This document shows, piece after piece, positions 14,467-32,531 of a stretch of DNA of 64,000 nt. The number at the start of each line of letters is the position of its first letter. Positions within the stretch are counted from its first letter, which is position 1. Origin of the DNA: Chromatiales bacterium. GTDB lineage: Bacteria; Pseudomonadota; Gammaproteobacteria; SZUA-140. A model generated the notes under the pieces. That model did no database searches. It had not been told where the DNA came from and was given only the letters and a program-made list of their open reading frames with translations. The stretch covers positions 23,886 through 87,885 of the forward strand of contig JBJHCZ010000003.1 of NCBI GenBank assembly GCA_050486285.1. Reading direction: 5' to 3'. Made by a program: the position numbers and the translations under genes.

Positions 14467-14546
14467 CCCCGTCGAGGCCCCCTCGTGAATCTGCTGCCTG
14501 TGTTTGTTTTCGAGCCTCAGTTCCGTGTCACGGTTTCGTACCACAG

Positions 14547-14889: not shown

Positions 14890-15519
14890 TTAGCGCGCCG
14901 ACAGTTCGCGGTCGACGAGCCAGTCGACGATCTCGATCAGCATCTCCGCATTGCGCGCCATCGTCGCATCGACACGATACTTGCCGTTGACGACGAAACT
15001 CGGCGCGCCCTGGATCTCGTAACGGCGGCTCATCAGCTGGGCATTGCGTACCCGCGTCGCCGCCGCGCTGCCGCGAAACGCAGTGAGGAAGCGCGTGCGA
15101 TCGATGCCCTGCTCGGCAAAGAAATCCGCCATCAGCGGCTCACTGTCGAGCTGCCTGCCGTGTCGATGCAAGGCGGTGTAGATCGGGCCATGCACGCGGT
15201 CGAGGACGCCGAGGGACTCGGCCGCGAAGTAGGCGCGCGCATGGAAGACCATGTGACCGCCGACCACCGCCGGCATGCGCCGGAAGGTCACGCTGTTGCC
15301 CCGTGCCACGAGCCAGCGTTCCAGCGCCGGCTGCACGACAAAGCAGGTCTGGCAGTCATACCACAGGAACTCGATGACCTCGACGGTACCCGGCGCCGCC
15401 TCGACCGGTTGCGGCGGCTCGATCAGCTTGTAATTCATGCCCTCGATGAAGCCGCCGGCGGCGTGGACTTGCAGCGACAGCAAGAGCGCGCCGAGTAGCA
15501 GTGCGATTTTCCGTATCAT
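14890..15519 (-). CDS. DsbA-family thiol:disulfide oxidoreductase
   Basis: Start MIRKIALLLGALLLSLQVHA (signal peptide). Thioredoxin-like CxxC in WYDCQTCF. The longer 368-aa ORF start is rejected. Confidence 0.7.
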   Translation of the reverse strand: MIRKIALLLGALLLSLQVHAAGGFIEGMNYKLIEPPQPVEAAPGTVEVIEFLWYDCQTCFVVQPALERWLVARGNSVTFRRMPAVVGGHMVFHARAYFAAESLGVLDRVHGPIYTALHRHGRQLDSEPLMADFFAEQGIDRTRFLTAFRGSAAATRVRNAQLMSRRYEIQGAPSFVVNGKYRVDATMARNAEMLIEIVDWLVDRELSAR

Positions 15520-15538
15520 CGTTATGGCCGTCAGGTCG

Positions 15539-16300
15539 TCAGTTGATGTCCCGGACCGGGATCGTGATCTCGGCCCCGGCGGCGCCGTCACGGTCGGGCA
15601 GGTTGCGCTCGACCCATTCGCGGGTCCTGCGCTCGATCCACTCGGCCTCGTGCTCGGGTAGCGGCCCGCGGGCCAGCCTGGTTTCCCACTCCCACAGCGC
15701 CGAGCGCGCGCGGCGGACATAGGGGTCATCCGGGGAGGCGAGATGGATGTAGACGCGCATCGCCCCGAGCGCGCCTTCGAGATCGCCGAGCTTCTCGAGC
15801 GCGACCGCGAGGCCCCAGTAGGCATTGCCGAGCCAGGGATCGAGGTCGGTCGCGGTGTGGAAGAAGTCATGCGCGCCGCGATAATCCTCGAGGCCGAGCA
15901 GCGTATAGCCCATGTTCGCGTGCGCCTCGGGCAGGCGCGGCGAAAGCTGGAGCACCCGGTGCAGCGCGACCATCGCCTCGTCGAAGCGCTGCGCATGCAA
16001 CATCACGACGGCCTGCTGGAAACGCATGTCGATCTCGGCGAGGCGGTCATCGGCAGGCGGCTCTGCCGGCGAGGGCAGCGGCATCAGGTCGACGACCCGC
16101 GCCGGTTCCGTCGTCGCGCGCGGGCTTCCCGACATGACTGCCATGTCCATCGGCGTCACGATCCGCTGCGGCGTCAACTGCGCGGTCTGCAGCAGGGACT
16201 TCAGATCCGGGGCGGCGGCGAGCATGAACACGGTGCAGGCAATGACGCCGACCAGGCTCATCGACACCGCAGAGATCGACGACTCGTGGGAGTGCCTCAT
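15539..16300 (-). CDS. Membrane-anchored TPR-repeat protein; possible apocytochrome chaperone (CcmI/NrfG-like role is inferred)
   Basis: Start MRHSHESS overlaps the ccsA stop (ATGA). One TM helix is followed by TPR-like helices (EAHANMGYTLLGLEDYRGAHDFFHTATDLDPWLGNAYWGLAVALEKLGDLEGA). Confidence 0.6.
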   Translation of the reverse strand: MRHSHESSISAVSMSLVGVIACTVFMLAAAPDLKSLLQTAQLTPQRIVTPMDMAVMSGSPRATTEPARVVDLMPLPSPAEPPADDRLAEIDMRFQQAVVMLHAQRFDEAMVALHRVLQLSPRLPEAHANMGYTLLGLEDYRGAHDFFHTATDLDPWLGNAYWGLAVALEKLGDLEGALGAMRVYIHLASPDDPYVRRARSALWEWETRLARGPLPEHEAEWIERRTREWVERNLPDRDGAAGAEITIPVRDIN

Positions 16301-17154
16301 ATGACCCCCTTGTGCGCGGCCTCGCTGTAGAACGGTGTGCCGAAATAGGTGAAGAACGCGAACGCGAACACACCGACGATCGCCATCGCGCCGAGCCTCG
16401 GATGCAGATTGTAGGTCAGGCGGAGGTGGATCAGGCCGGCCATCATCAGCCAGTTCAGAAACGACGAGGTCTCGAGCGCGTCCCAGGCCCAGTAGCGGCC
16501 CCAGGCATCCTGCGCCCACACCGCGCCGGCGATCAGCATCAGGCTGTGGAACACCAGCGCCAGCAGCATGAAGCGCCAGGCGACCGTATCGAGGATACTG
16601 TCGGACGGCATCTGCCGCAGCAGAAAGCGGAAGCCGCGCACGCCGCGCAACAGGATGATGCCGGCCAGTCCGGTCGCGATCAGGCACAGGCCGAGAAAGA
16701 CCTTGCCGAAGCCGACATGGGCCCACAGCCAGTTATGATAATAGGTCGGCGGATAGGGGCTGGCGGCCGGGTCGAGGGTCAGCACCCAGATACCCATCAT
16801 CCACAGCACCGGCAGCACGACGATGACGGTCGGCCGGATCAGCGGTACGCGCCAGTAGGCGATCGTGTAGATCAGGCCGAGGCTGAACAGCTGGCTGATC
16901 AGCAGTTCGAACAGGTCGACGAAGGGACCGTGGCCGACGCGGAGCCAGCGTTCGGTCAGCGAGACTGCGAGCAGCAGCACCGCCGACGCCAGCAAGGCGA
17001 GGACGTAAGGTTCATGGCTGCGCGAGAAGGTCAGCGCAGAAACGCCATTGTTGGCGCGCAGCGCGCCCTGCGCGGCAAATACGGTCGCCAGCGCGTACGC
17101 GGCGAGACCGGCATACAGCCACGGCATCTCCGCGACCATCATCTCTTCGCTCAT
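16297..17154 (-). CDS. ccsA: System II cytochrome c biogenesis protein CcsA/ResC
   Basis: Polytopic membrane protein with the WGRYWAWDALETSSF WWD motif and conserved His residues. Confidence 0.85.
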   Translation of the reverse strand: MSEEMMVAEMPWLYAGLAAYALATVFAAQGALRANNGVSALTFSRSHEPYVLALLASAVLLLAVSLTERWLRVGHGPFVDLFELLISQLFSLGLIYTIAYWRVPLIRPTVIVVLPVLWMMGIWVLTLDPAASPYPPTYYHNWLWAHVGFGKVFLGLCLIATGLAGIILLRGVRGFRFLLRQMPSDSILDTVAWRFMLLALVFHSLMLIAGAVWAQDAWGRYWAWDALETSSFLNWLMMAGLIHLRLTYNLHPRLGAMAIVGVFAFAFFTYFGTPFYSEAAHKGVI

Positions 17155-18179
17155 GGTGTTTTACCTCCGAGTTGCGCGGCGGCCTTCTTGCGCGCGGCCT
17201 CCTGGGCCGCCGAGTAGACCTGGATCGCGCCGAACTTGCGCCAGAAGTGCGCCGCCAGACCGAACACCGCGATCATCGACGCAAGAAACAGCCAGTGCAG
17301 CGTCTGATCGTAGTAGATCCGGTAACCCATCCAGCCGGCCAGCCGCTCGAAGCGCAGGAAGCCGCCATCGATGCGCGCCGTCTCGCCGGGCTGTAATTCA
17401 ATGCGGTCTTCGCCGGCGCGCACGACGAGGACGCCCTCGGAGGCGCGCGGATCGAGGCGCCAGCTCGCGTCCGGATCGATGCCGGTCTCGAGTTGCAGCC
17501 AGAACCGGATCTCGTCCTCTGTGCCCTCCGGCGTCCAGCGATTCGCCTGCCGATGCTCGAACAGCGGATAGGACGGCATGTGCACCGAACCCGTCACCGG
17601 CATGCCGCCGTCGGGGATCCAGGTCAGCACCGCAGCGAAGCCCTTGTTGAACGTCGTATAGAAACGGTAGCCCTCTGCCCGCAGCGGGGTATCGTCGCCG
17701 ACGACCCTGTGTTCCCAGCCGCCGCGGCCGTCGGGCACCCTGATCTCGCTGCGCGTCGCGCCCCGCGACATCCCGACCCGGTAATCGATCGTGTACGGTC
17801 CCTGCACGAAACCGACGCGGTCGAGGTCGCCGCGATGCCAGGGTCCCGCGCGCACGTTGATGATCTCGTCGGCGTGGAAGGAGTCGCCCTCGGTCAGTTC
17901 GACGTTGGCCTCCATCATCGTCATGCGGCCGATCGCCGCGAGTACGGCGATCGCGAGCAGACCGAGGTGAAACACCAGCAGGGCGCCGCGGCGGTTGATG
18001 CGCGGATTGGTGATCACCGCCGCGAGCAGGTTGACCGCGAGCAACGTCATCGGCGCCGCCAGCACCCAGGTCGGCGTGTCGACCGGGTTGTCGTAGTTGA
18101 GCGCAGCGCCCACGCCCAGAAAGGCCATGCCGAACAGGGTCAGCCGGGTCGAGGCGAGACTGCGCAGCGCCGCGCTCAT
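17151..18179 (-). CDS. ccsB: System II cytochrome c biogenesis protein ResB/CcsB (short form)
   Basis: Start MSAALRSLASTRLTLFGMAF overlaps the multiheme cytochrome stop. N-terminal TM helices, a large periplasmic domain and a C-terminal TM. Located immediately upstream of ccsA. Confidence 0.75.
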   Translation of the reverse strand: MSAALRSLASTRLTLFGMAFLGVGAALNYDNPVDTPTWVLAAPMTLLAVNLLAAVITNPRINRRGALLVFHLGLLAIAVLAAIGRMTMMEANVELTEGDSFHADEIINVRAGPWHRGDLDRVGFVQGPYTIDYRVGMSRGATRSEIRVPDGRGGWEHRVVGDDTPLRAEGYRFYTTFNKGFAAVLTWIPDGGMPVTGSVHMPSYPLFEHRQANRWTPEGTEDEIRFWLQLETGIDPDASWRLDPRASEGVLVVRAGEDRIELQPGETARIDGGFLRFERLAGWMGYRIYYDQTLHWLFLASMIAVFGLAAHFWRKFGAIQVYSAAQEAARKKAAAQLGGKTP

Positions 18180-20905
18180 GGGATGTTGATGCAGGCCTCG
18201 TTGCTGTTCATCATCCAGTCGACGCCGACAATGTTGTTGCCCGGCGGACCGGATGATCCGCAGTGCGCATCCAGCCATTCGCCGCTGCGCGCGAAGCTCC
18301 TGACCTTGAGCGCGGCGCCGTTGTAATAAGGCGCCCGGTAGAAACGCCCGGTGCCGGACGGCGCGAAGCCCTGGTAACGCACCTGGGTACCGGGCTCCAT
18401 CTCGGACTCGAGACCGATATCATTCAGGTTCACGAGGAAGGCCTTGTTCTTCCAGCCATGCGGAATCGACACATGGCAATAGGTGCAGCGGAAGTTGTTG
18501 ACGACCGCGGCATGGCCGATGTGCAGGTTGACGCCGAGGAACTGCAGGCAACCGCCGCCGCCGACCGCGCGGCGGAAGCCGCTCGCGAGCACCTGCGGAT
18601 CCGGCGCCAGCGAAGCGCGCGCGTAGTTCTTCGGATCGTGGCAGCGGAAGCACAGGTGATTGTTGGGATCCGCCTCGTTGGCGAAGTTCGTCGTCAGGGT
18701 GCCGGTCTGGTCGCTCCAGTTACCCTTGAGGATGAAGTTCTCGTTCGAGCCGTGCGGACCCCACGGCGCGCCATGCTCGCCGCCCATCGGCACGACGGTA
18801 TCGCCCATCGTGCCCGACCCGTGGCAGTCGGAGCAGTACATCGTCTGATTACCGACCGCGCTGCTGAACGGCTGGCGCCAGACATCGGGATTTGCCCCGC
18901 GCTCATTCGGCGTGCGCCCGGTCCGGAGCATGACCGGGTGCCAGGAACGGTGGTTCCAGGTGACGAAGTCGACGCAGTTGCCCTGCGGGTCGATGTGCCC
19001 ATTGATGATCTGTGGCACACCGTTCGGGTCGGTCACCTGAAGATTGCACGCTGCGCCCTCCTCATAGGCGCCGGTCGGCGAGGAGCGCGTGAGGCCGCTG
19101 ATATGATCCGGCGGCGACTGGAACTCCATCGCCTGGTTCGTGTAATGCAGCATGTCCGGCGGCGTGCTCGGCGTCCCCGGCGGCGTCAGGCCGGTGGTAT
19201 AGCCGAGCGGCGGCGGCGTGTCATAGGCGTAGTTCGAATGGCATTTCAGGCACAGCTGATACTCGCGCGTCAGGTAAGGCGCGCTGACGGCATCGCTGCC
19301 GCCGATGCCGGGGTCGCCGCGCTTGACCTGGAAGTCGATCGGATTCGAGCCGAAGCGGGTGCTGGCATAGACCGGTTCGACGCCCCAGATACCGCGCAGC
19401 ACGCCCGAGGCAATGTTGCTCGGCGGGATACCCGGCGTATGTTCGTGCGTACCGGCCTCGCCGGGCACGGTCGGATCATCGTTGAAGCGGCGATTGCGGA
19501 TCACGCGATGCGGATTGTGGCAGTCGGTGCACTCGGCATGGCGGTTGTGCAGGCCGCCGAGACCGAGCAGTTCACGCGACTCGACGAAGTCCTGGCCGCG
19601 CCGGTCGCCCTGGGTCGCGGAGTCGCCGGTGCCGATGCTGTGGACCTCGTGGCCGGCGAGCTGGTGATCGCTCGAGATCGGCATGTGACGCGCGAGCGTC
19701 GTGAAGTCGGTCTTGATGTCCGGGACCTCGAAGGCCGGATTGGTGTTCGGGCTGATCTGCCCCTGCAGCGTCTGCGCGGTCGGCGGACCGACGGCAGGAT
19801 CGCCGTGGCAGGAGTAGCAGACATATTCGACCGCCGGCCGTCCGCCCTGGCGGAACTGGCCGCCGGTCTCGGGATCGGTCAGCAGCGGTCCGTCGGTGCC
19901 CTCGCGCAGCAGGCGGCGCGCGCCCTGCACGGTATGCGGATCGTGGCAGTTCAGGCAGGCCGCCTGCCAGACCTGGATGTTGCGCGGGAACTCGCGGATG
20001 TCGGCCGCGGAATCGGTGTAGCGCTCGATCGCGACGCCCGGATGCGCATGCGCGGAATCGACCCAGCCGTCCTTGTCATGACAGGCGAGGCAGATGATGT
20101 CGTTGCGCGGATCGAACTGCCCCTGCACCGGCGGCTGGACCTGGAAGCGGTTCGCGCGCAGGAACTTGATGTTCTCGCCCGGCACCTCCGAGCGGATATG
20201 CGGATCGTGACAGGTGATGCACTCGAGCTTCGGCCCCGACCCGTCGGCGTCGCGCTCGAGCGGCAGGAAGTCGCCCTGCGGCATCGCGACCGGCCCGCCG
20301 CGCACGCGCTCGCCGACCCAGGACACGGTGACGGGATCGAACAACTCGCCGTCGCGCGCGGCCTGCGCGCTGTCGTAGGTGAACGAGATCGGGTGATCGT
20401 TGGTCAGGTCGATGCCGAGATAGCGGGTGAAGCCGGTGTCGCGACCGAGGCCTTCCGGGATCGTGCCGCCGGGACCGGTGCCGCGCATCGGCACCGTAGT
20501 ATCGACCTGGCGGTTCAGCACGTTGACCGAACCGAGCGCGATGGTGCCGTCGTGACAGGACAGGCACAGCTTCGAGCGTCCGGTCGGCTGGCCGAGATCG
20601 GTCGCATCGATCGAGGTCGAATCGAACGGGATATAGGTCGCGCGCGACAACTGGCGGTTCCACAGCGGCGCATTGTGCTCGGGCGTCGCGCCGTGCGGCG
20701 TATGGCAGAAGGCGCAGATCTGGGACTCGCTGACTGCGGACGCGCGGCGTTCGATGCCGGCCGGCGCGATGGTCGCAGAAAAATTATGGCGGGTGTTCGA
20801 GATGTCGGAGATCCGCGGCGGACCGCCGCCGGCCCAGACGACAGCGGCCGCGCCCCACAGCAGGGCAAGGACGACCGTCGCCGATACCAGCCGCGGGTTC
20901 ATCAT
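18176..20905 (-). CDS. Undecaheme c-type cytochrome (909 aa) with an N-terminal paired-CXXCH module
   Basis: Eleven CxxCH motifs: CAFCH, CLSCH, CITCH, CLACH, CLNCH, CYSCH, CTDCH, CLKCH, CSDCH, CFRCH, CTYCH. Signal peptide present. N-terminus SNTRHNFS...ICAFCHTPH...CLSCHDG is paralogous to the 29261-30100 protein. Confidence 0.9.
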   Translation of the reverse strand: MMNPRLVSATVVLALLWGAAAVVWAGGGPPRISDISNTRHNFSATIAPAGIERRASAVSESQICAFCHTPHGATPEHNAPLWNRQLSRATYIPFDSTSIDATDLGQPTGRSKLCLSCHDGTIALGSVNVLNRQVDTTVPMRGTGPGGTIPEGLGRDTGFTRYLGIDLTNDHPISFTYDSAQAARDGELFDPVTVSWVGERVRGGPVAMPQGDFLPLERDADGSGPKLECITCHDPHIRSEVPGENIKFLRANRFQVQPPVQGQFDPRNDIICLACHDKDGWVDSAHAHPGVAIERYTDSAADIREFPRNIQVWQAACLNCHDPHTVQGARRLLREGTDGPLLTDPETGGQFRQGGRPAVEYVCYSCHGDPAVGPPTAQTLQGQISPNTNPAFEVPDIKTDFTTLARHMPISSDHQLAGHEVHSIGTGDSATQGDRRGQDFVESRELLGLGGLHNRHAECTDCHNPHRVIRNRRFNDDPTVPGEAGTHEHTPGIPPSNIASGVLRGIWGVEPVYASTRFGSNPIDFQVKRGDPGIGGSDAVSAPYLTREYQLCLKCHSNYAYDTPPPLGYTTGLTPPGTPSTPPDMLHYTNQAMEFQSPPDHISGLTRSSPTGAYEEGAACNLQVTDPNGVPQIINGHIDPQGNCVDFVTWNHRSWHPVMLRTGRTPNERGANPDVWRQPFSSAVGNQTMYCSDCHGSGTMGDTVVPMGGEHGAPWGPHGSNENFILKGNWSDQTGTLTTNFANEADPNNHLCFRCHDPKNYARASLAPDPQVLASGFRRAVGGGGCLQFLGVNLHIGHAAVVNNFRCTYCHVSIPHGWKNKAFLVNLNDIGLESEMEPGTQVRYQGFAPSGTGRFYRAPYYNGAALKVRSFARSGEWLDAHCGSSGPPGNNIVGVDWMMNSNEACINIP

Positions 20906-21975
20906 GCCTCACCCAGAAATTGAAAAATCATGATGCGACCGTTGAATGCGTCGGCGACGTAAATCCGGTCGCGGCGGTCGGTCCAGACCCCCGCCGGGAG
21001 ATAGAACTGGCCTATCCCGCTGCCGGTACCCCCGATCGGTAAAAGCAATTCTCCCCGTTCGGTGAATACTAACAGATGGTCATAATAGGATTCCACCACA
21101 TAAACCAGCCCGTTATCGTCGACCGCCACCCCCTTCGGCCGCGGCAGATCGCCGACAAACAGTCCGCGCCGGCCGAACTCGCGGATGAAGCCGCCGTCGG
21201 CGTCGAAGATCTGCACGCGCGAGTTGAGCGTATCGGTCACGTAGAGACGGTCCCCGGCGAAGGTCAGGTAGGTCGGCGCGTTGAATTCGCCCGGGGCCTC
21301 GCCGCGGTGGCCGAACACGCCGATGAACTCGCCGTCGTCACTGAAGATCTTGATGTCGTGGGCCTGCGCATCGGCGATGTAGAGTCGCCCTCGCGCAGCG
21401 TCACGCGTAATCCCGACCGGTCGCGAGAACCGGCCGTCACCGATGTAGCCGACCGGCTCGCCGTTGCGATCCAGACGCACGACGCGCCGCAGTCCGGCAT
21501 CGACGACCAGCACCTCGCCGTTGGCGCCGGGGCTGATGCTGACCGGGGTCTGAAAGCGCAGGCCGCGGCCGGCGGCCTCCCACACATGCAGCCTGCCAGC
21601 CTGCTCGTCGAACACGAACACCGCGGAACGACTGACGTCGGTGATATGGATCCGGCCGTCCTCGCCGACGAAACCGCTCTGCGGGCGCTGCAGCACGACC
21701 GGCGCGCGCTTGCCGCTGACGAAACCGACCATCCATGCCAGGACGCGACTGCCGAAGTTCGGCTGATTGGCGCGGGGGAGATTCTGCTCGCCGGTCAGTT
21801 GCCCGACCAGTCGATAGCGCGGCGGATCGGGCGGCGACGGCCAGACATGCTGCTCCGCCTGGGCTTGGTATTCGTAGGTGAGCACGCCCGGGCCGGTGCC
21901 GGCGCAGGCCGCGAGCAGCCCCGCCGCCAGCACCACCGCGACCTTCCCTGTGCCGGTTGACGAGGCTGTGCGCAT
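20902..21975 (-). CDS. NHL-repeat (six-bladed beta-propeller) lipoprotein
   Basis: Lipobox LAAC. Repeated R/G-x-x-G-xx-GEF motifs typical of NHL blades (GEAPGEFNAPTYL, GSGIGQFYLPAGV). Confidence 0.8.
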   Translation of the reverse strand: MRTASSTGTGKVAVVLAAGLLAACAGTGPGVLTYEYQAQAEQHVWPSPPDPPRYRLVGQLTGEQNLPRANQPNFGSRVLAWMVGFVSGKRAPVVLQRPQSGFVGEDGRIHITDVSRSAVFVFDEQAGRLHVWEAAGRGLRFQTPVSISPGANGEVLVVDAGLRRVVRLDRNGEPVGYIGDGRFSRPVGITRDAARGRLYIADAQAHDIKIFSDDGEFIGVFGHRGEAPGEFNAPTYLTFAGDRLYVTDTLNSRVQIFDADGGFIREFGRRGLFVGDLPRPKGVAVDDNGLVYVVESYYDHLLVFTERGELLLPIGGTGSGIGQFYLPAGVWTDRRDRIYVADAFNGRIMIFQFLGEA

Positions 21976-21979
21976 CGCG

Positions 21980-22966
21980 TCACGGCCCCCCGGGCGGCAC
22001 CGGCACCCAGGAAGCGAGCGACAGGACCTGTATCCGCCGGTTCAGGCTGTCCGCCACATACAGATTCCCTTCATCGATCCACAGACTGGTGATCCTGCTG
22101 AAGCGACCCGGCGCCGCGCCGTGGCCGCCGATCACGCCGACCAGTCGGTCACCGTCGAAGACCTTGATATCGTCGGCCATATAGTCGGCGACGAAGGCGA
22201 GGCCGTCGTTCGCGACCGCGATCGCAATCGGGAAGGTCACGGTATCGCGCTGGTAGGACTCGATCCAGTCGCCCTCGAAGCCCATGACCTGGACGCGATG
22301 CTCGCCGAAGCGGGTACCGATGTAATACCCCTTCGGCCCCTGCGCCAGCGCGGTGATGCTGGTGAACTTGCCCGGCCCGCGCCCGCGGCCGCCGAACGCG
22401 CCGACCGGCAGGCCCTCCGGGTTATACACCAGTACACCGTCGTTGTTGCCGTCGGCGATGAAGATATAGCCGGTGGTGTCGTTGACCCGCACCGACACCG
22501 GCCGGGTGATGTTGAGACGGTCCTCGATGACGCGCAGCTTGCGGCCGTTGCGATCGAAATGCAGGACACGGGCGCCGTCGGTATCGGCGATCCACACCGA
22601 CAGGTCGCGCGCGAGATAGAGGTCGGCGTCGTTGCCGCTGACCACGCCGCGCAGGTCGAGCGCGCGTTCGATACGGTCGAAGCGGGCGTCATAGCGGAAC
22701 AACTGGCGGTGGCCGACGTCGAGGATATAGACGACATGTCCGCGCGCGGCGACCGCGACCGGCTGCAGGAAGCGGACTTCGGGCGGGCCGGTGACGATGT
22801 TACCGGCGGAGGTCAGCCCGCCGTCGATGGTCTGCCACAACGCGCCGCGCGCCTCGAGCGCGGCGGCGCGCGTGCCGCTGTCGATGCTCGCGCAGGCCTG
22901 CAACAGCAGGACCGCGCAGGCAAGGCTCAGCGCAGCAAGGTGACTTCTGGAGAGACGGAGTGGCAT
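21980..22966 (-). CDS. NHL-repeat lipoprotein (paralog)
   Basis: Start MPLRLSRSHLAALSLACAVLLLQAC (lipobox). NHL-like blades (GRGPGKFTSITAL, GAAPGRFSRITSL). Overlaps the upstream triheme gene by ~40 nt. Confidence 0.75.
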   Translation of the reverse strand: MPLRLSRSHLAALSLACAVLLLQACASIDSGTRAAALEARGALWQTIDGGLTSAGNIVTGPPEVRFLQPVAVAARGHVVYILDVGHRQLFRYDARFDRIERALDLRGVVSGNDADLYLARDLSVWIADTDGARVLHFDRNGRKLRVIEDRLNITRPVSVRVNDTTGYIFIADGNNDGVLVYNPEGLPVGAFGGRGRGPGKFTSITALAQGPKGYYIGTRFGEHRVQVMGFEGDWIESYQRDTVTFPIAIAVANDGLAFVADYMADDIKVFDGDRLVGVIGGHGAAPGRFSRITSLWIDEGNLYVADSLNRRIQVLSLASWVPVPPGGP

Positions 22967-23508
22967 CTGCCGCAGTTCATCGTGGGTGCGAAGGCGACGC
23001 GACCATGGCAGAGCCCGCAATACTCGCCCTGGATGATCGCCGACATGTTGACCGGATTCGCGCCCCGCTTCGGAATGAAAGGTACCGGATGGCAGTTCGC
23101 GCAGGTCAGCCACTCGGTATGCTGGAGATGCGGGAACCTGACATTGGGCATCGATTGCGTATTCGTGAAGATGATGTCGAAATCGACAGTGAACATCTGC
23201 CGCGAGCCGTCGAGACTCTGGCGGGGATCGATCAGCCCGCGGTTCAGCGTCCTGACCCAGTCGATCAGCCCGCCGGCGTCGCGCGGGAACCGGGCCATTG
23301 CGTCATATGGATCCTGGAACACCGCGGCGGCCTCGCCGCTCGGGTCGCGGATGCCGTCATTCGCGGTCGGTACCCGCTCGCCGGAGGAAAACTGGAAATG
23401 GCCGACGTTGCGCTCCCAGGAAGGCGCCTGCTGCGCATGGGCCAGCCCGAGTCCCGACAGCAGGCATGCGAGCAGCGTGATGCCCAGGAATCGCAGCGAT
23501 ACACGCAT
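22927..23508 (-). CDS. Triheme c-type cytochrome (c7-like core with N-terminal extension)
   Basis: Signal peptide MRVSLRFLGITLLACLLSGLGLAHA. Motifs CANCH, CGLCH, CGRCH with FPHLQHTEW preceding the first heme site. Paralog of 25130-25807. Confidence 0.8.
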   Translation of the reverse strand: MRVSLRFLGITLLACLLSGLGLAHAQQAPSWERNVGHFQFSSGERVPTANDGIRDPSGEAAAVFQDPYDAMARFPRDAGGLIDWVRTLNRGLIDPRQSLDGSRQMFTVDFDIIFTNTQSMPNVRFPHLQHTEWLTCANCHPVPFIPKRGANPVNMSAIIQGEYCGLCHGRVAFAPTMNCGRCHSVSPEVTLLR

Positions 23509-23534
23509 CGGATATGTCGCGACACTCATCTCTC

Positions 23535-25076: not shown

Positions 25077-25129
25077 GCTTTCCTCGTACTGCTACCCGCG
25101 GCCGGGGGCGCCGGCCGCGGGGCGCCGCA

Positions 25130-25807
25130 CTATCTCCATGGATTGTTCAGCGTCGCCTCGCTCAGGGGCGGTGACCAATTGGCCGGCTTCGGCTTCGAGT
25201 GACATTTCGTGCAGGTCTGCATGTTGACCGGGAAGGCCACCTTGCCATGGCAGACGCCGCACTTCTCGCCGAGCAGGATCGCGGACATGCTGATCTGGTT
25301 CGCGCCCTGCTGCGGCACGAAGATGCGCGGATGGCAGTTCGAGCAGAACAGCCATTCGGTATGCTGGCGATGCGGGAACACGACATCGGGCACCGACGCG
25401 CGCACCGGGCGAATGATGTCGAGGTCCATCACGAACGGCTCCTCGGCCGAATTGACGCGATCCCAGCGCGGGCGCAGCAACTGATTGTCGATCGCCTTGA
25501 CCCAGTCGACGCGATTGCCGAAGTTGGTCGTCGGCAGCCCCTGGAAGGCCTGCGCCGGCGGCTGCAGGCGATGGGTCGCCTCGTTGTCCGGGTCGTTGAT
25601 GCCGGACTCCGGCGGCGGCAGGTGAGGCGTCTCGCGACGGAGATTGCGGTTGAAGGTGTTGACGTCGCCGGCTTGCGCCAGCATCAGCGGCGCGCCCCGA
25701 TCCATGACGGAATCGGCGACGGCGGCCGAGCCCTGCCAGGCGAATGCGAGCAACAGCGCTGCGGCCGACAGACCGGCGGCAATCCCGTAGTTCCTGAATA
25801 TTTTCAT
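25130..25807 (-). CDS. Triheme c-type cytochrome (paralog of 22927-23508)
   Basis: Signal peptide. Motifs CSNCH, CGVCH, CTKCH with FPHRQHTEWLFCSNCHP. The C-terminal ~90 aa are conserved with the paralog. Confidence 0.8.
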   Translation of the reverse strand: MKIFRNYGIAAGLSAAALLLAFAWQGSAAVADSVMDRGAPLMLAQAGDVNTFNRNLRRETPHLPPPESGINDPDNEATHRLQPPAQAFQGLPTTNFGNRVDWVKAIDNQLLRPRWDRVNSAEEPFVMDLDIIRPVRASVPDVVFPHRQHTEWLFCSNCHPRIFVPQQGANQISMSAILLGEKCGVCHGKVAFPVNMQTCTKCHSKPKPANWSPPLSEATLNNPWR

Positions 25808-25829
25808 GATGGGCTCCCCCTTCCTTCAA

Positions 25830-26288
25830 TCATTGCCGGGGTGGCTGGCCGGCGGTCGCGCCGGGGTCCAGCGGACGGTGCGCGGGCGCGACGAGGCGCT
25901 GCACGGTGCTGCCGTGGATTTGGGTCGGCGTGCCCGGGAGACCGGAATGGCACATCGCGCAGTTCTCGACCGACCAGGCGATCTCGCCGTTGTGGCAGGC
26001 GCCGCAGAACTGCCCGTCGATGATCTTCGCCATCGTGATCTTGTTGCCGCCGGCCTTGAACTCGAAGCCGAGGTCGGCGTGGCAGACCTTGCAGCGGAAG
26101 CGGATGCGGTGGAACCAGTGCGAGAACACGACCGGGCGCATTTCGGCGGCGTCGGAAAAGTTGTTGATGACGACATCGCCGTATTCCGCGTGCGCGGTGT
26201 TCGGCGCCGCGGCCCACATCCAAAGGCCGACGAGAAGCCCCGCGATCAGCGAGAAGCGGACAGGATTCCGCGCGATAATTGGTGACAT
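25830..26288 (-). CDS. Cytochrome c7-type triheme periplasmic cytochrome (PpcA-like)
   Basis: Signal peptide. VVFSHWFHRIRFRCKVCH, FCGACHNG and ENCAMCHSG match the c7 layout. GGAGAGG Shine-Dalgarno upstream. Confidence 0.85.
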   Translation of the reverse strand: MSPIIARNPVRFSLIAGLLVGLWMWAAAPNTAHAEYGDVVINNFSDAAEMRPVVFSHWFHRIRFRCKVCHADLGFEFKAGGNKITMAKIIDGQFCGACHNGEIAWSVENCAMCHSGLPGTPTQIHGSTVQRLVAPAHRPLDPGATAGQPPRQ

Positions 26289-26353
26289 GACTAACCTCTC
26301 CTCAATGGATATACAGATAATTATTTTTGTCTCGGGCGGTCGCCGGCGGGCAG

Positions 26354-28067
26354 TCAGAAACGCCGGTTTACCTGGAAATACACAAGGCTGTATTTTTCTT
26401 CGTTATCGAGGTTGATGTAACGCCAGCTCGCGCTGGTGTCCAGCAACCCGATCGCGTATGTCAGCCTGTTTTCCCACTCGGCGCGGTCGATGCCCTCATC
26501 GAGCGCCGCGTGCCAGATACGCAGATCCGAGTGGAATCGCAACTGGGCGATATTGAACAGGTCCATATGCTGGAAATTGACCTGTCCGCTAGCCGCTACT
26601 GTATCATCATCGCGGATGCCAATGAAGTCCCGGCGCATGTACTGGACGGTCAGATTGCCGGAAAGCGTGCTGCGCAGGCTCAGATTCTGGGTCCGCAGGA
26701 GCTGGACGTTCGCGAACTGCTGCTCGTCCTCCTGGTCCCCGAAACCGCGGGAGTCCGACAGCGTGACCTGGAACATCGTCGTCGACCCCTCGCTGTACAG
26801 ATCCCACGAGAAGCTGCCGGAGTGGTCGAGGCGCTGGGTGCCGAGATCGGCGTCCCCGGATTGCTGGATGCCGCTGACGGACTGGCTCAGGCTGAGCCGG
26901 AAGGTCCCCCGCCCCTGGGTCAGCCACAGGCGCTGGGCGTCGTGGCCGACGCGCAGCGTCGAGGTGAAGATGCTCTCCTCATTGAAGTCCTGGTGCTGGA
27001 CCGAACCCTGGGTGTACCAGTTCCAGGTCATTTTCGAGAAGATCTCGCGCAGGTCGGACTGATACAGCGCCCCGACCCGCTGCCGCGACGACTGCGTGCG
27101 TTCATCGTTGTCGATGACCGTGCCCTCGACATTGGCGTCGAGGCGCAGGTTCTTGGTCAGCTGGTAGAACAGGCCGCTCATCGCGCTGACGCTGGTCTGT
27201 TCGATCTGGTTACCGGCGTTCTCGGCATTGAGGCCGAATACGCGCACGCCGGCGCTGACCGACAGCGGCTGGTTCAGCGGGCGGTAGAACAGGAAGCTCG
27301 AGGCCTGGGTCAGGTCCATCAGGCTGTCGCCGAGGTTGGTGCCCCCGAGCGGCTGGGTCTGCCGCGTTTCCGAGTCGTAGTGGCTCATCATCGTGTCGAC
27401 GCGGAAGGCCCGACTGGGGTGGTAGTAGTGATCGACGTTGACGACGACGATGTCGGTCCGCAGGTCCTGGACGTTGCGCTCGATCTCCTGGTAGCTGGTC
27501 TTGCCGATCAGCGTATGGCGCGGGCGGCGGATGTTCATCTCGGCGCCGACCAGCTGGTCGAGGTAGTCCTCGCCGCCGCGCGACTCCCACTCGTTGCGGT
27601 CGTAGCGGGCCTGGAAGCGGTCGCCCTTGTCGTTGAAATAGGACTGGCGCAGCGCGAGCCGGCGGGTCGTGAACTCGCGGCCGCCGAGCGTCGTCACGGT
27701 GTTCGGCAGCGATACCGTGTCGACGCGGCTGTCGCTGGTGCGGTAGGACAGCGAAAACGGGGTCTTGCTCTGGGACAGCACGTTCAGATCGAGATCGCCG
27801 GTCAGCACCGTGGTCTCGGTCGACGTGTTCGCGCCCTTGTAGTCGGTGCTGTCCTGGGTCAGGCGCACGCCGGCGGTCAGGGTCGCGAACCAGGGCTGCC
27901 AGATGTAGCTCTGGGCATTGATCGCCGCGCGCAGCTGGTTGCTGCTGGCATCGCTGTTGGAACTGCCGGTGATCGCGCGGTAGGTATAGCCGACGCTGCC
28001 CGAAACGTCGACGAGTTCCATCGCGGCCGGCTGGGCGACCCACAGGGCTGCGAACAGCCCCGGCATC
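26354..28067 (-). CDS. Large outer-membrane beta-barrel protein (putative porin of a porin-cytochrome complex)
   Basis: Start MPGLFAALWVAQPAAMELV (signal peptide). 570 aa of alternating amphipathic beta-strand pattern, C-terminal ...VYFQVNRRF. No heme motifs. Confidence 0.65.
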
Positions 28068-28203
28068 AGGCGCCTGAGATCAGGTTTCCCCACCAGCATG
28101 AACGCACTTCCCCCGCATCATCAGCCGAGCGCCTGTCGTTGTTATAGCTGGCGAATGCCGAAACCGCGCCGGCCGGCCGCGCCCCGCAAGCAGGGGACAC
28201 GGG

Positions 28204-29175
28204 TCAGCCGTCGGTCGCCAGCACCGCCTGGTTTATTTCTATTGTCGTCTTTGCGCGCAAGTCATCGAGCAGGCGTTCCCGCGCCTGCTCCTGCAACTCG
28301 CGCGCCAGGAGGCCGCGCGCCCGCTCGGCCACCTGCTCGAAATCGTTCAGCTTCGGCGCCACCCTTTCCTCGAGGCGGAACACCGCGAAGCCCTGCAACA
28401 ACTGCACCGGCCCGGACACCTCTCCCGCCGCCAGTTCATCGACGACGTCTTGCGCCTCAGGCGCCAGCATCCCCCGGTGCAGATAGCCGAGGTCGCCGCC
28501 TTCCTCCGCGGAACCGTCAGCGGAATGCAGCCGCGCGAGCGCGGCGAAGTCATCGCCGTCGCGGATGCGCGCGATGATGCGCACGGCCTCGTCGTGGGCC
28601 GCCTGCCAGGCCTCTCCTCCTGACCAGGGCTCGACCTTCAGCAGGATCAGCGACACCCGCAGCCGTTCCGGCGTCGTGAACTTGTCCGGGTTTTCCCGGT
28701 ACCAGGCCCTGAGCTGTTCCTCGCTGATTCCGGGGATCGCCTCGACCTGCGCTTTCAGCTGCATGATGACGCTGTCGCCGAGCAGTTGCTCGCGCACGAT
28801 CGCCCGCGCCTGCCCCGGATTCGCGCTCCCGGCAATACGCCCCGCCCAGGCCTGAAGCTCGCCGTCGACCCAGTCCATATCAGGCTCGAGTCCGCGGCGC
28901 TCTCCTTCCTGGAGCAGCAGGATTCGGTCGATGATCTCGTCGGCGACCTCGCGACGGAAGGCCGCGAGCTGTTCCTTCGGAACGCTGCCGTGATAGAAGC
29001 GCTGGCGCACGCCGGCGTGAAAATTCGCCTCGAACTCTTCCACCGGCACGGCAACGCCGCCGACCGTCGCGAAGATCCGCGCGCCGTTGTGCTCCGCGCC
29101 GCCGCGCGACTCCCCGGCCGCCGCCACCGCGAGGCAGACCATCAGCAACACTGTCGTGGTCAGAAAAATCCGCAT
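28204..29175 (-). CDS. Parvulin-type peptidyl-prolyl cis-trans isomerase (SurA/PpiD-like periplasmic chaperone)
   Basis: Signal anchor MRIFLTTTVLLMVCLAVAAAG. PpiC domain FAALARLHSADGSAEEGGDLGYLHRGMLAPE. Confidence 0.8.
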   Translation of the reverse strand: MRIFLTTTVLLMVCLAVAAAGESRGGAEHNGARIFATVGGVAVPVEEFEANFHAGVRQRFYHGSVPKEQLAAFRREVADEIIDRILLLQEGERRGLEPDMDWVDGELQAWAGRIAGSANPGQARAIVREQLLGDSVIMQLKAQVEAIPGISEEQLRAWYRENPDKFTTPERLRVSLILLKVEPWSGGEAWQAAHDEAVRIIARIRDGDDFAALARLHSADGSAEEGGDLGYLHRGMLAPEAQDVVDELAAGEVSGPVQLLQGFAVFRLEERVAPKLNDFEQVAERARGLLARELQEQARERLLDDLRAKTTIEINQAVLATDG

Positions 29176-29260
29176 CTGATCGATCCAAATCTGGCCACGA
29201 GACCGGATGCCCACGCCGTCCCGAAGTTCGCGTCCCTTACCCCTGTGTCCTGCGTCCTGC

Positions 29261-30100
29261 TTATTTATTGTGACACGTCAGACAGACCGCGCTGCCGGCC
29301 GGATCGATCCGCAGGAACAACGGATTCTGGTCCACATGGGGATCGTGACAGGAAGCGCACTCGACATAGGGTTGCGGCTCGCCGACGAAGACCCCGCGGG
29401 TCGCGGTCCGTGTGTACAGCTTCATGTCGGTGCGCTCGAAATCGGAAGTCCCGCCTTCGGTGTTGGTGTTGACCCACCAGATCCGGCTCGCGCCGACGAT
29501 CTTGCTCTCGGCCTGGTTGAAGTCCGGATCGCGGCCGGGGCCGAACGGGTTCGACAGCGCATAGCCGCCGCCGGCGTACTGCACGCCGATCGGGTGATCG
29601 TCGGTGAGGTCGGTGCCGAGATTGGTAATGACATTCGGCGGGCCGAGGCGGCCGCCCACGGTCGCGGCCTGGCCGCTCCAGACGCCGGTGCGGAAGGCCC
29701 AGTTCTCGGCGCCGGAGCCCGGCTCGTTGATCAGCGCGTCCATCGCCTGGGTACCGTCGTGGCAGGACAGGCAGGCCAGCGAGACCGAGCCGATCGGCTC
29801 GATCTCGGCATCGAGCGTCGTCGAGCCGAGTTGGTCGTAGGTGGTATAGGCGGCGCCCGGGGTCAGGTTGCGGTTCCACAGCGGGACCGCGGCGGTCGCG
29901 TCGGCGCCGTGCGGGGTATGGCAGAAGACGCAGATCTCCGAGGTGCCGCTGAAGTTGCTCGCGGCGTTGACGCCGGTGCTGCCGAGGTTGTGCTTGGTGT
30001 TGAAGATGCCGGCCGACGCGGCGGACGCGGCCAGCAGCAGCACGAACGCGACGGCAATCAGCGCCCGGTAGTGCGTGAAGGTGCGGTGATCCCCTCGCAT
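29261..30100 (-). CDS. Tetraheme c-type cytochrome, paired-CXXCH family
   Basis: Signal peptide. GIFNTKHNLGS...EICVFCHTPHGA, CLSCHDG, CASCHDPH, CLTCHNK. Paralog of the N-terminal module of the 909-aa cytochrome. Confidence 0.85.
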   Translation of the reverse strand: MRGDHRTFTHYRALIAVAFVLLLAASAASAGIFNTKHNLGSTGVNAASNFSGTSEICVFCHTPHGADATAAVPLWNRNLTPGAAYTTYDQLGSTTLDAEIEPIGSVSLACLSCHDGTQAMDALINEPGSGAENWAFRTGVWSGQAATVGGRLGPPNVITNLGTDLTDDHPIGVQYAGGGYALSNPFGPGRDPDFNQAESKIVGASRIWWVNTNTEGGTSDFERTDMKLYTRTATRGVFVGEPQPYVECASCHDPHVDQNPLFLRIDPAGSAVCLTCHNK

Positions 30101-30245
30101 CGTTGTACCTGGACCTCCCCCTCTGGCCGGATCACCGGCTGATCACCAATGCCGTGATTGTGTTGCGACTTTAGCACAATGGACCGGACATTTCGACAAG
30201 CCGGGACGTCTGTCGCGCCCCTTGGATCACCCTGCCCGGCGCGCT

Positions 30246-31358
30246 TCAGAGCCCGATATCGAAGCGGTGGATCACACCGGCCGACAGCGTGGTGACGTTG
30301 CGGCCGGCCTCCGAGGCCGGGATCGCACCGTTGTCGCGGTCACCGGGCGCGGCGCGGACGATATCGTCATGATACGGCTGCAACCCGTAGCCGGCGTTGT
30401 CGTCATTGATGATCCCGGCCGCGAGCAGGTAGAGCCCGGTCCGCGGCGACACCGCGTACGAGAAGCCCGCCGCGACGAGGTGCGCGCCGCTGTCGGGGAC
30501 ATCGTTGCGGTCGTCGAGCATCGCATAGGCCAGTTTCCATGTGAAATTGCCGGCGACATGGGAGAAGTTCAGGTACAGCGCCTCGCGACGCTGTTCGCGG
30601 CCGGCGGTGAATACCCCGTTGCTGGCCTCCTCCCAGGCCGCGGCGACCTTCGTCCCCTGGCCGAAGTCCCAGCCGAGCGCGAACTTGCGGGCCTTCGCGT
30701 CGGACTGCGTCGGGGTGTCGGTGCGACCGAGATTCTCGTAGGCGAAGCCGGCATACAACTGGCCGTGCTCGAAACGCAGCGATGCGCTGTAACCGGAGAG
30801 ATCGGCGTCGTCATCGGCCATCGGCAGGTTGTCGTTGTCCTGGTTCGCGATATAGCCGAGATCGAAGCGCACGCGCTTGATGTCCGGCGTCGCGTAATGA
30901 ATGATGTTGCGCGCGCGGCGGTGGAATACCGGGTCGCCGTCGATCGAGCCGAGCGCGGCGCTGGCATCGGCGCGGGTCTCGTGGAAGATGTCGAGGCGGT
31001 CGGTCATCGCGCGGTACGGGGTCACATGCCGGCCCGCGAGCAGCGTGCCGAGCCGGCTCTCGAGCGCGACATAGCTGTCGCGGCCCTCGCCCCAGCCGCC
31101 GTCGTCGAGATCGACGGTGGTCTCGAACTGCCAGCGGATCGCGAGCCGGTCGCTGACCGCCTCGCGCCCGCGCAGGCCGATGTGCGAGTGATTGCTGGTG
31201 ATCGACAGCGCGGTCTTCTTGTTGGCCGGAACGGGGTCGCGGTTATCGACGACGTCGAGCGACAGGTGGGCGGCGCCGTACAGGTCCATCGCGGCGAACG
31301 CCGGCGCCGCCGGCAACAGGGCCGCGAGCGCGGCGACAAACAGGGGATTACGCATCAA
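30246..31358 (-). CDS. Gram-negative general porin (Porin_4-like)
   Basis: Signal peptide MMRNPLFVAALAALLPAAPAFA, DLYGAAHLSL near the mature N-terminus, beta-barrel periodicity. Confidence 0.7.
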   Translation of the reverse strand: MMRNPLFVAALAALLPAAPAFAAMDLYGAAHLSLDVVDNRDPVPANKKTALSITSNHSHIGLRGREAVSDRLAIRWQFETTVDLDDGGWGEGRDSYVALESRLGTLLAGRHVTPYRAMTDRLDIFHETRADASAALGSIDGDPVFHRRARNIIHYATPDIKRVRFDLGYIANQDNDNLPMADDDADLSGYSASLRFEHGQLYAGFAYENLGRTDTPTQSDAKARKFALGWDFGQGTKVAAAWEEASNGVFTAGREQRREALYLNFSHVAGNFTWKLAYAMLDDRNDVPDSGAHLVAAGFSYAVSPRTGLYLLAAGIINDDNAGYGLQPYHDDIVRAAPGDRDNGAIPASEAGRNVTTLSAGVIHRFDIGL

Positions 31359-31442
31359 CTACAGTACTCCATGACGGGAGGATTGCGGAATATCCGGGAA
31401 AGGTACCCGATACCGGGGACCGGAGACAAGCCGGAGGGGCGG

Positions 31443-31475
31443 AAAAAGAAAGCCGGGCGCGGGGCCCGGCTTTCA
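31443..31475 (-). terminator. Rho-independent terminator downstream of the 31503-32531 OMP gene
   Basis: Minus strand reads AGCCGGGCCCCGCGCCCGGCT followed by TTCTTTTTCC. Lies 28 nt after the stop. Confidence 0.55.
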
Positions 31476-31502
31476 GTACTGCGGACGACTACCCGAGTCA
31501 GC

Positions 31503-32531
31503 TTAGAACTTGAAGACTGCTGCGAGGGTGATCTTGTCGCCATCGATAGCCGGGAGTCCCTGGCTTTCGATGTCATCGGAACGCCACTCAAGACGCAGGT
31601 CGACGTTGTCTGCTGCCTTCCAGTTGCCGGCAACAGTAATCGCGGTATCTTCGGCACCGCCATCATACTCGACCATGTCATAACGCAGCGTGATGCCGAA
31701 GTTGTTCGGCAGACCAATGTGGCCACCGAGGCTCATACCGGAATCAAGGATCTCACCGGCGGTGATGTAATCGAACCACACCCTTACCGGCATACCGCCG
31801 GCATCCAGGCTGTAGGCAACGTTGAAGTTAATCAGGTTCTCGTAAGACTGATCGTTGGTGGGCGTATTGTCTTCCTGAGTCAGTACCCCGAGGCCGAGAT
31901 CAAGGCCGTCAATCGGCGAGCCGCTGATATTCAGCAGGAAGGAATTTGCGTCATCGACGCCGCCGATCTCGTTCAGAAGGCCGAGAGTGACCTTCGCGGG
32001 TCCGGCCATCAGGTGAACCGCTGCACCCTCGACGTTGTTACCGTCGCCTTGGGTAATCTGGTGATTCAGGATGTCGGTGCGGATGAGACCATGCGAGATC
32101 GTCGTCAGGTCAGACTTGTTGTGGGCTTCAGCGCCGAGCGGGCTGTTGAAGCGACCGACCTGGACCTTGGCCATATCATGGACGCGCCAGGCGCCAAAGG
32201 CCTGCTGAACCGCAAACTCATCGGTTGCGCTTGCATACGGATTGTTGATGACGACGTCGATGCGCGCATAGGCATCGTCGTTGATCATGGCGCCGAAACC
32301 CAGCTTGCCCGCGGTCTTGAACTTGCGCTCGGAAGCGTTCGCCGGATTACCGTCGGCATCCGTTCCTTGGTTCTCAGCGAAATCATCGGTGATCGCGAAG
32401 GTACTCATCACATAGCCATTGACCGTGGCGCCCGGGCCCTTGTCCTTGCCGTGGTGGCCGTCGGCTGCGAAGGCCGCGCCGCTGGCAGCGAAGGCGCCGG
32501 CGACGGCGACTGCTAACAGTTTCTTGTTCAT
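31503..32531 (-). CDS. Outer-membrane beta-barrel (porin-like), atypically low GC
   Basis: Signal peptide MNKKLLAVAVAGAFAASGAAFA, C-terminal ...LAAVFKF. GC ~55% and A/T-ending codons versus ~68% in neighbours. Strong RBS GGGAGAGAG. Confidence 0.65.
   Translation of the reverse strand: MNKKLLAVAVAGAFAASGAAFAADGHHGKDKGPGATVNGYVMSTFAITDDFAENQGTDADGNPANASERKFKTAGKLGFGAMINDDAYARIDVVINNPYASATDEFAVQQAFGAWRVHDMAKVQVGRFNSPLGAEAHNKSDLTTISHGLIRTDILNHQITQGDGNNVEGAAVHLMAGPAKVTLGLLNEIGGVDDANSFLLNISGSPIDGLDLGLGVLTQEDNTPTNDQSYENLINFNVAYSLDAGGMPVRVWFDYITAGEILDSGMSLGGHIGLPNNFGITLRYDMVEYDGGAEDTAITVAGNWKAADNVDLRLEWRSDDIESQGLPAIDGDKITLAAVFKF

Follow-up and report, generated by a model that had tools for sequence, protein, structure and literature searches.

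Which system is encoded by the train of co-oriented genes at positions 14890-32531 of a 64,000-nucleotide stretch of DNA from a Chromatiales bacterium (contig JBJHCZ010000003.1; this whole stretch is hereafter called the window)? An earlier note on this DNA had read the train as sixteen genes for a trans-outer-membrane electron-transfer module that carries its own heme-attachment machinery. The list of open reading frames, together with Pfam and NCBIfam profile searches of the train proteins, confirmed sixteen genes with the claimed domains, all on the minus strand. Judged by gene content, gene order and the published description, the locus is a member of the Uet family, named for 'undecaheme electron transfer' (bioRxiv 10.1101/2022.05.06.490989). 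Its tetraheme cytochrome UetA and the N-terminal part of its undecaheme cytochrome UetJ resemble OmcE, the subunit of a cytochrome nanowire. From the upstream end, the train consists of the following genes:

31503-32531, minus strand: BBP2 OmpL-like beta-barrel porin (PF07642, 35.5 bits)
30246-31355, minus strand: Porin_4 general Gram-negative porin (PF13609, E 4.6e-34)
29261-30100, minus strand: UetA, secreted tetraheme cytochrome of 279 residues (four CXXCH motifs, doubled-CXXCH domain)
28204-29175, minus strand: UetB, periplasmic SurA-like chaperone and parvulin peptidyl-prolyl isomerase (PPIase; PF00639, PF13145, SurA_N)
26354-28099, minus strand: UetC, outer-membrane beta-barrel of 581 residues (C-terminal signal ...NRRF; no family match)
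25830-26288, minus strand: UetD, small periplasmic c7-type triheme cytochrome of 152 residues (PF14522, TIGR04257)
25130-25807, minus strand: UetE, c7-domain triheme cytochrome of 225 residues with an N-terminal extension of ~100 residues (PF14522, TIGR04257)
23535-25076, minus strand: UetF, cupredoxin-like lipoprotein of 513 residues with a long helical C-terminal half (lipobox LLSAC; weak PF25489)
22927-23529, minus strand: UetG, c7-domain triheme cytochrome of ~200 residues (PF14522, TIGR04257)
21980-22966, minus strand: UetH, NHL beta-propeller lipoprotein (PF01436, PF17170; lipobox LLQAC)
20902-21975, minus strand: UetI, six-bladed NHL beta-propeller lipoprotein (PF01436 with 72.6 bits, PF17170; lipobox LLAAC)
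18176-20905, minus strand: UetJ, secreted undecaheme cytochrome of 909 residues (11 CXXCH motifs)
17151-18179, minus strand: CcsB/ResB-like System II cytochrome c maturation protein, short form (PF05140)
16297-17154, minus strand: CcsA, heme-handling protein of System II (PF01578, E 2.4e-20)
15539-16300, minus strand: TPR protein, NrfG/NlpI-like in the published cluster (several TPR families)
14890-15519, minus strand: DsbA-like thiol:disulfide oxidoreductase with a CQTC motif, the last gene of the train (PF01323)

A signal peptide or lipobox is visible on every exported protein of the train. The longest open reading frames of UetB, UetH, CcsB, the TPR protein and the DsbA-like protein start too far upstream, and their true starts are internal. 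The barrel, put at 570 residues in the earlier note, has 581.

The cluster uetABCDEFGHIJ was named in 'Candidatus Tenderia electrophaga' and other Tenderiales (Eddie et al., 2022; mSphere 7:e00223-22; bioRxiv 10.1101/2022.05.06.490989). In the published order, UetA is a tetraheme cytochrome, UetB a PPIase, UetC a barrel, UetD and UetE c7 cytochromes, UetF a cupredoxin, UetG a further c7 cytochrome, UetH and UetI NHL proteins and UetJ the undecaheme cytochrome. The cluster continues with ccsAB, a TPR gene (nrfG) and batABD, and the Uet proteins of 'Ca. T. electrophaga' are ALP54622-ALP54633. It was later also reported from six Gallionella genomes, where a porin-multiheme complex is predicted (PMC10734462), and, again as a predicted conduit, from Leptothrix (PMC13386937), and a 2025 review cites it. 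The locus in the window shares with the Tenderiales cluster thirteen gene products in the same order, heme-motif numbers of 4/3/3/3/11, a 28-strand barrel, and a cupredoxin lipoprotein between the second and third triheme cytochromes that is followed by two NHL proteins. System II and TPR genes come next in both, with Bat/VWA genes beyond them and alternative complex III (ACIII) elsewhere in the genome. It differs in that it belongs to an uncultured lineage of higher GC content (~66% in the window), that a DsbA-like gene, which lies outside the published uet definition, is inserted after the TPR gene, and that ResB precedes CcsA. Furthermore, the bat genes lie on the opposite strand, convergent on the train, and two porin genes that the published description does not include are conserved upstream. 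The combination that the earlier note did not recognise as a described system is therefore the named uet cluster, down to gene order, 28-strand barrel, cupredoxin and NHL pair. The idea that a trans-outer-membrane module brings its own System II and may connect to ACIII had likewise been published before. It is plausible, although its support so far comes only from genomics and from the high expression seen in a community grown on a cathode (PMC5371394).

When the Protein Data Bank (PDB) was searched with UetA, only two solved structures were matched: the OmcE filament of Geobacter sulfurreducens (7tfs_A, E 1.9e-26) and the OmcE bundle of Desulfuromonas soudanensis (9yuq_N, E 4.9e-26). UetA is 29% identical over its full length to the OmcE encoded in the Geobacter genome. 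Invariant throughout an alignment of 88 UetA-like and OmcE-like sequences are the four CXXCH motifs, the histidines H37, H64, H169 and H255, and a PxWN motif. Four CxxCH motifs plus four other heme-coordinating histidines are the pattern that Petersen et al. gave for OmcE homologs (bioRxiv 10.1101/2025.10.22.684050). In OmcE and OmcS filaments, a histidine of one subunit ligates the heme of the next (PMC9473688). We conclude from these sequence comparisons that UetA is a homolog of the OmcE family of cytochrome nanowire subunits, a relationship that the earlier note had missed. We found no paper linking UetA to OmcE in the searchable literature. Within the literature searched, the homology of UetA and UetJ to OmcE is new relative to the published Uet model.

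UetJ has 11 CXXCH motifs in the window copy and in all 18 complete orthologs. Residues 32-242 match 7tfs_A (E 1.1e-18), and the protein is found by a hidden Markov model of the OmcE/UetA family (E 2.6e-36). Residues ~29-276 of UetJ are thus, by sequence similarity, assigned to a second OmcE-like four-heme module, which is followed by seven more hemes. All eight ligand positions of the module are invariant in the 19 UetJ sequences, and the whole protein has 28 invariant histidines for its 11 hemes. The seven-heme remainder had no match among solved structures. As in the published description, no domain besides the CXXCH hemes was detected in UetJ. The module was also considered as the 'nine-histidine stopper' of Petersen et al., a form that we rejected because only 2 of the 19 orthologs have the ninth histidine, H77.

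The neighbourhood of uetA was compared with that of omcE. The Geobacter locus contains purHDE, ppcA (a c7 triheme cytochrome), resB, ccsA and genes for nine-heme and eight-heme paired-CXXCH cytochromes, and then an NHL lipoprotein gene, omcE, a gene for a 752-residue protein without a family, and glycosyltransferase genes. According to Petersen et al. (bioRxiv 10.1101/2025.10.22.684050), minimal OmcE clusters always comprise OmcE, a large barrel and two each of multiheme cytochromes and beta-propeller lipoproteins, beside resB/ccsB. The same authors use a barrel and a propeller lipoprotein nearby as the criterion for filament-competent OmcE homologs, which they report from five phyla including Pseudomonadota. 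The Uet locus contains an OmcE homolog, a large barrel gene ~1.2 kb downstream of uetA and a beta-propeller lipoprotein. It shares several features with the OmcE loci of G. sulfurreducens and D. soudanensis (7tfs, 9yuq; Wang et al., 2022): a large barrel gene comes after the subunit gene, and an NHL lipoprotein, paired-CXXCH multiheme cytochromes, a c7 triheme cytochrome and resB/ccsA are encoded in the neighbourhood. However, the Geobacter barrel has ~750 residues and no detectable sequence relation to UetC with its 581. The Uet locus adds a SurA-like PPIase, a copper protein, two triheme cytochromes and an undecaheme cytochrome that starts with an OmcE-like module, but it lacks glycosyltransferase genes. 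The extra multiheme cytochromes of the two loci are weakly similar, and the Uet hosts are oxygen-respiring lithotrophs rather than metal reducers. The correspondence between the Uet and Geobacter omcE loci is thus not one of simple orthology. Two further loci resembled that of Geobacter omcE. A locus in a betaproteobacterial Rhodocyclaceae metagenome-assembled genome (MAG; L034, 222-4926) encodes an OmcE that shares 70% identity with the G. sulfurreducens protein, and it also has the Geobacter-type NHL gene, the 752-residue barrel and glycosyltransferases, which suggests a recent horizontal transfer of the entire Geobacter-type nanowire locus.

AlphaFold2 predicted UetC as a 28-strand barrel with a mean predicted local distance difference test (pLDDT) score of 83.9. 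A barrel of 28 strands with a pore of ~5 nm had been predicted for the published UetC (Eddie et al., 2022). For 28 strands, the standard relation of barrel geometry gives a Calpha-to-Calpha diameter of ~5 nm, an estimate that was not measured on the model. A barrel of this predicted width would in principle be wide enough for a folded cytochrome. UetC matched no Pfam family, including that of MtrB/PioB, and structural matches to its model were generic large barrels only. A word-indexed search returned 107 close relatives, and an exhaustive profile search found 828 representatives at 50% identity, of which 503 had E <= 1e-30. The best solved relatives of UetB are SurA chains (E ~1e-14). Of the 23 genome loci fetched, 21 have its gene between those for UetA and the barrel. 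The gene is missing from locus L024 and from L025, a fragment that matches L024, as well as from two truncated fragments, L020 and L023. In L024, which lies on a 3.02-Mb contig, the interval 8891-11839 has no PPIase gene between uetA and uetC, and an opposite-strand gene stands between porin and uetA.

Among the triheme cytochromes, UetD has its best solved match in residues 176-242 of GSU1996 (3ov0, E 5e-45), in line with the published c7 domains of Uet, which best match domain C of GSU1996 (Eddie et al., 2022). Three CXXCH motifs are present in 27 of 27 UetD orthologs and are likewise conserved in the orthologs of UetE and UetG; UetG also matches Geobacter PpcA (E 7e-6). In UetF, the histidine of QHDFY and the motif C-R-N-H-x-x-M are invariant in 22 orthologs. 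The domain probably carries a type-1 copper site with His, Cys, His and Met as ligands and a C-x(2-4)-H-x(2-4)-M loop. Such short ligand-loop spacing is known from amicyanin-type cupredoxins, and type-1 copper centres are usually of high potential. The PF25489 match of UetF is weak (29.8 bits against a cut-off of 27), and neither single-sequence nor profile searches of the PDB detected a solved cupredoxin relative. The PDB matches of the copper-domain profile were expression-tag sequences only (GB1, TEV site) and were discarded. The pair of UetF and an outer-membrane cytochrome recalls the Cyc2-rusticyanin pathway of Acidithiobacillus, in which an outer-membrane cytochrome and a type-1 copper protein pass electrons to an oxidase and uphill to NAD. 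However, rusticyanin is small and soluble, whereas UetF is a 513-residue lipoprotein with a helical half and is unrelated in sequence to solved cupredoxins, and no fused cytochrome-porin of the Cyc2 type is encoded here. The adjacent, overlapping genes for ResB/CcsB and CcsA identify a System II pair. CcsA is 29% identical to the CcsA encoded beside Geobacter omcE. The position of ccsB after uetJ is conserved in relatives, and a TPR gene follows ccsA even in the distant variant L027 described below.

Is the arrangement a chance one? Species-representative genomes were scanned with a seven-sequence UetC alignment as the seed, and gene order in the 23 loci returned was followed by tblastn with the 16 proteins of the window, wherever the contig reaches. 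Except for one 2-kb contig binned as Pirellulaceae, the loci come from MAGs of uncultured Gammaproteobacteria or "Chromatiales". The order of porin(s) and UetA through UetJ, CcsB and CcsA is common to them. Since this order recurs in 23 species-level genomes, it is not due to chance. The closest relative has 94% barrel identity, and the MAG SZUA-140 shows full synteny at 40-87% identity. That MAG names an order placed beside the Tenderiales, and uet is conserved in those neighbouring orders (bioRxiv 10.1101/2022.05.06.490989). Heme-motif numbers of 4/3/3/3/11 were found in essentially all complete orthologs. Conservation is highest in UetA (66-96% identity) and UetD (71-99%) and lowest in UetB, UetC and UetF, with identities down to 34-40%. 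High conservation of UetA, with barrel, PPIase and copper protein diverging fastest, is the reverse of the pattern of Geobacter, for which fast evolution of outer-surface cytochromes has been reported (bioRxiv 10.1101/2025.11.06.686851). The Pirellulaceae contig (L020, JAGFJK010000394.1) carries uetC, uetD and uetE at 64-76% identity; most likely it was binned wrongly and gives no sign of a planctomycete Uet.

A rearranged Uet-like type, with a barrel 25-27% identical to UetC, was seen in L027 (6447-21863), L029/L030 and L035 (7213-20831). Its order begins with genes for NHL, a UetA-like protein, PPIase, barrel, c7 and a c7 fused to a class I cytochrome c. It continues with two proteins of ~285 residues and no assigned family in place of the cupredoxin, followed by c7, c7, NHL, a large multiheme cytochrome, ResB, CcsA and TPR. 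This cluster has four c7 genes and adjoins System I (ccm) genes. Because variants with barrels this divergent exist, the Uet module is old and diversified.

From uetG to the TPR gene, successive spacings are -40, +4, -4, -4, -4 and -4 nt, the first being the 40-nt overlap between the end of uetG and uetH. The uetJ stop and the ccsB start share an ATGA, ccsA overlaps by 4 nt on each side, and the TPR gene is translationally coupled to ccsA. The remaining gaps in the train measure 19-147 nt, and the dsbA-like gene starts 19 nt past the TPR stop. Directly 3' of the first porin gene lies a terminator-like hairpin (31448-31474, minus strand) with an 11-bp stem, 8 GC pairs and a TTTTT tail. Because of this hairpin, we regard the first porin gene (31503-32531) as probably a transcription unit of its own and not a core part, and the train probably comprises at least two transcription units. 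The GC content at third codon positions is 0.72 in this gene and 0.80-0.92 in the other train genes. A second GC-rich hairpin (~-31 kcal/mol), without a T-run, is located between uetE and uetF (25077-25129, minus strand). It may be an mRNA-stability or attenuation element that parts highly expressed triheme genes from the distal genes.

The earlier note had counted both porins as parts of the module. A BBP2 porin stands upstream of uetA in most related loci (27-58% identity), and a Porin_4 porin precedes uetA in 19 of them (28-87% identity), but the latter was not found in L014 despite 10 kb of upstream sequence. Membership of the porins in the module is thus not supported: they accompany the cluster in most relatives but are not universal, a terminator of its own is predicted for the first, and the published cluster begins at uetA. 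On the other side, a Bat/VWA/MoxR module is convergent on the end of the train:

7780-14466, plus strand: MoxR ATPase/VWA/BatD module (PF07726 at 7780-8739, PF00092 at 10119-11153, PF13584 BatD at 12874-14466)

In 'Ca. T. electrophaga', the corresponding genes are batABD, which come after nrfG. In the convergent gap between batD (plus strand) and the dsbA-like gene (minus strand), two long hairpins lie next to each other at 14545-14651 and 14709-14820, with stems of 29 nt (100% complementary) and 30 nt (97%) and loops of 49 and 52 nt. Both have the core GTCATGGAC in common, whose occurrence in the rest of the window does not exceed chance. The pair may terminate transcription in both directions or represent a small palindromic repeat. 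The earlier note had rightly placed ACIII nearby: a complete operon is present at 46117-53685 (minus strand). Its products are a multiheme protein resembling ActA, a split ActB (a molybdopterin-like subunit with the FeS subunit separate), an NrfD-like ActC, ActD, a monoheme cytochrome c and one more protein. The TraF-like family PF13729, for which that note had proposed a search, is not represented in the train. A 422-residue outer-membrane protein of the TraF_2 family (E 1.2e-47) is encoded outside the cluster at 39214-40482 (minus strand).

What does such a locus do? We consider it likely that it is a Uet-family locus of uncultured, probably chemolithoautotrophic Gammaproteobacteria, and that it specifies an outer-membrane module exchanging electrons with solids, most likely for uptake, with UetA possibly polymeric. 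In such a module, CcsBA, the TPR protein and the DsbA-like helper would presumably attach heme at the 24 encoded sites; the genes of all are present, and those of CcsBA and the TPR protein are coupled with the cytochrome genes. The SurA-like UetB may chaperone the UetC barrel, or the coil-rich cytochromes, to the outer membrane. UetA, by its homology to OmcE, would be the extracellular conductor, probably as a polymer held together by trans ligation of heme by histidine. UetJ could dock with its OmcE-like N-terminal module onto the UetA chain and carry it through or onto UetC, while the two NHL lipoproteins would keep the complex in place, or help to build it, on the periplasmic side of the outer membrane. 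The three c7 triheme cytochromes and UetF would relay electrons across the periplasm to high-potential acceptors (cbb3 oxidase) and, uphill, to ACIII and the quinone pool. Host physiology as described, expression on the cathode and the copper protein all speak for inward electron flow.

Tentatively, we go one step further and propose that Uet is an OmcE-type nanowire run in reverse. Oxygen-respiring lithoautotrophs would polymerise UetA into a heme wire outside the cell to harvest electrons from minerals or cathodes, and the UetJ chimera would serve as the base or tip adaptor, a part missing so far, to a non-homologous 28-strand barrel and a copper/c7 relay.

Several observations weigh against these readings. 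OmcE filaments have been seen and Uet filaments never, and we found no experimental work on any Uet protein in the literature searched. The OmcE/UetA-like tetraheme cytochromes gave 7075 matches, most of which have never been shown to polymerise. Relative to OmcE, UetA has an insertion of ~45 residues, modelled by AlphaFold2 as a small beta-sheet, which could change the contacts between subunits. With an alignment of 88 sequences, AlphaFold2 modelled UetA at a pLDDT of 55, lowest around the heme sites, which was too poor for a test of the fold. Homology between UetC and the barrel of the Geobacter omcE locus was checked in three ways and rejected: hmmsearch with the UetC profile and phmmer with the Geobacter barrel both gave E >0.09, and hhalign a probability of 1%. 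The assembly and anchor machinery is therefore not simply orthologous. UetI is 31% identical over its full length to the NHL lipoprotein beside Geobacter omcE (157 bits), but eukaryotic TRIM-NHL domains score 149 bits. This similarity was therefore taken as generic, and orthology of the two lipoproteins was rejected. Moreover, the undecaheme gene of Tenderia did not respond to electrode potential (PMC5371394), and the direction of electron flow is not readable from sequence.

The main rival is a discrete porin-cytochrome complex without a polymer, as in the published model and that of the earlier note, with UetJ or UetA inside UetC, the other as a monomer on the surface and the c7 cytochromes as shuttles. 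It differs from the favoured reading only in the state of UetA, and we regard it as rather doubtful. It is the published interpretation, the 28-strand barrel is wide enough to sheath a protein, and polymerisation is not proven by sequence. The parallel to MtrAB/PioAB, to which the earlier note had pointed, holds for the architecture but not for the proteins: UetC has no match to the MtrB/PioB barrel family, and a compact decaheme of the MtrA/DmsE type was not found in the train (TIGR03508, 31.3 bits for UetA and 34.4 bits for UetJ against a cut-off of 192.2). With one heme per 83 residues in UetJ and one per 62-70 in UetA, these cytochromes are unlike the thin rod that threads MtrB. Compared with MtrCAB, MtoAB and PioAB, Uet has a barrel of 28 instead of 26 strands and carries its own heme-maturation genes, propellers and copper protein. 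The Pcc complex of Geobacter (OmaB-OmbB-OmcB) and PCC3 of iron oxidisers are likewise composed of a predicted porin with periplasmic and extracellular multiheme cytochromes; PCC3 belongs to the same ecological guild, and Geobacter Pcc has c7-type periplasmic partners. They differ from Uet, however, in protein families and heme numbers, and none has an OmcE-like subunit, a cupredoxin or an NHL pair in this order. UetA also keeps all eight histidines of the filament-forming OmcE proteins, and it does so in the diagnostic neighbourhood of barrel and propeller.

A conduit working outward, for metal- or electrode-reducing respiration as with OmcE in Geobacter, appears improbable to us. The only characterised relatives of UetA, the OmcE proteins of Geobacter and Desulfuromonas, do serve Fe(III) or electrode reduction, and multiheme chains are reversible in principle (PMC10734462). 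However, a conserved type-1-copper-like protein is embedded in the cluster, and ACIII is encoded nearby. The hosts have been described as Rubisco-bearing, oxygen-respiring lithoautotrophs and also include the iron-oxidising Gallionella and Leptothrix, and expression in Tenderia is strong on the cathode, where the triheme cytochromes rank among the most highly expressed genes (PMC5371394). Finally, a purely periplasmic redox pathway or a fortuitous neighbourhood, with an ordinary barrel and porins beside soluble sulfur or nitrogen chemistry, is very improbable: the location of the cytochromes is predicted only and the two upstream porins resemble housekeeping porins, but the 16 proteins contain no catalytic domain (Sox, Dsr, Nrf, Hao etc.) in Pfam or NCBIfam, the genes are translationally coupled, and the order of 12-14 genes is kept down to 37-40% identity (rearranged, to 25% barrel identity), which argues for a co-functioning unit that includes the barrel.

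For electron uptake from solids by neutrophilic iron oxidisers and cathode-grown "electroautotrophs", Uet is one of few candidate machines. The locus described here adds another member and a wider census, with 23 species-level genomes and 828 barrel representatives at 50% identity. The homology of UetA and the UetJ head to OmcE gives the Uet model a concrete form, with UetA as a possible polymer, UetJ as its adaptor and UetC as its anchor. Cytochrome nanowires, so far tied to metal reducers, may thus serve electron uptake as well. If this is true, a UetA nanowire might account for the reported high conductivity of Tenderia biocathode biofilms.

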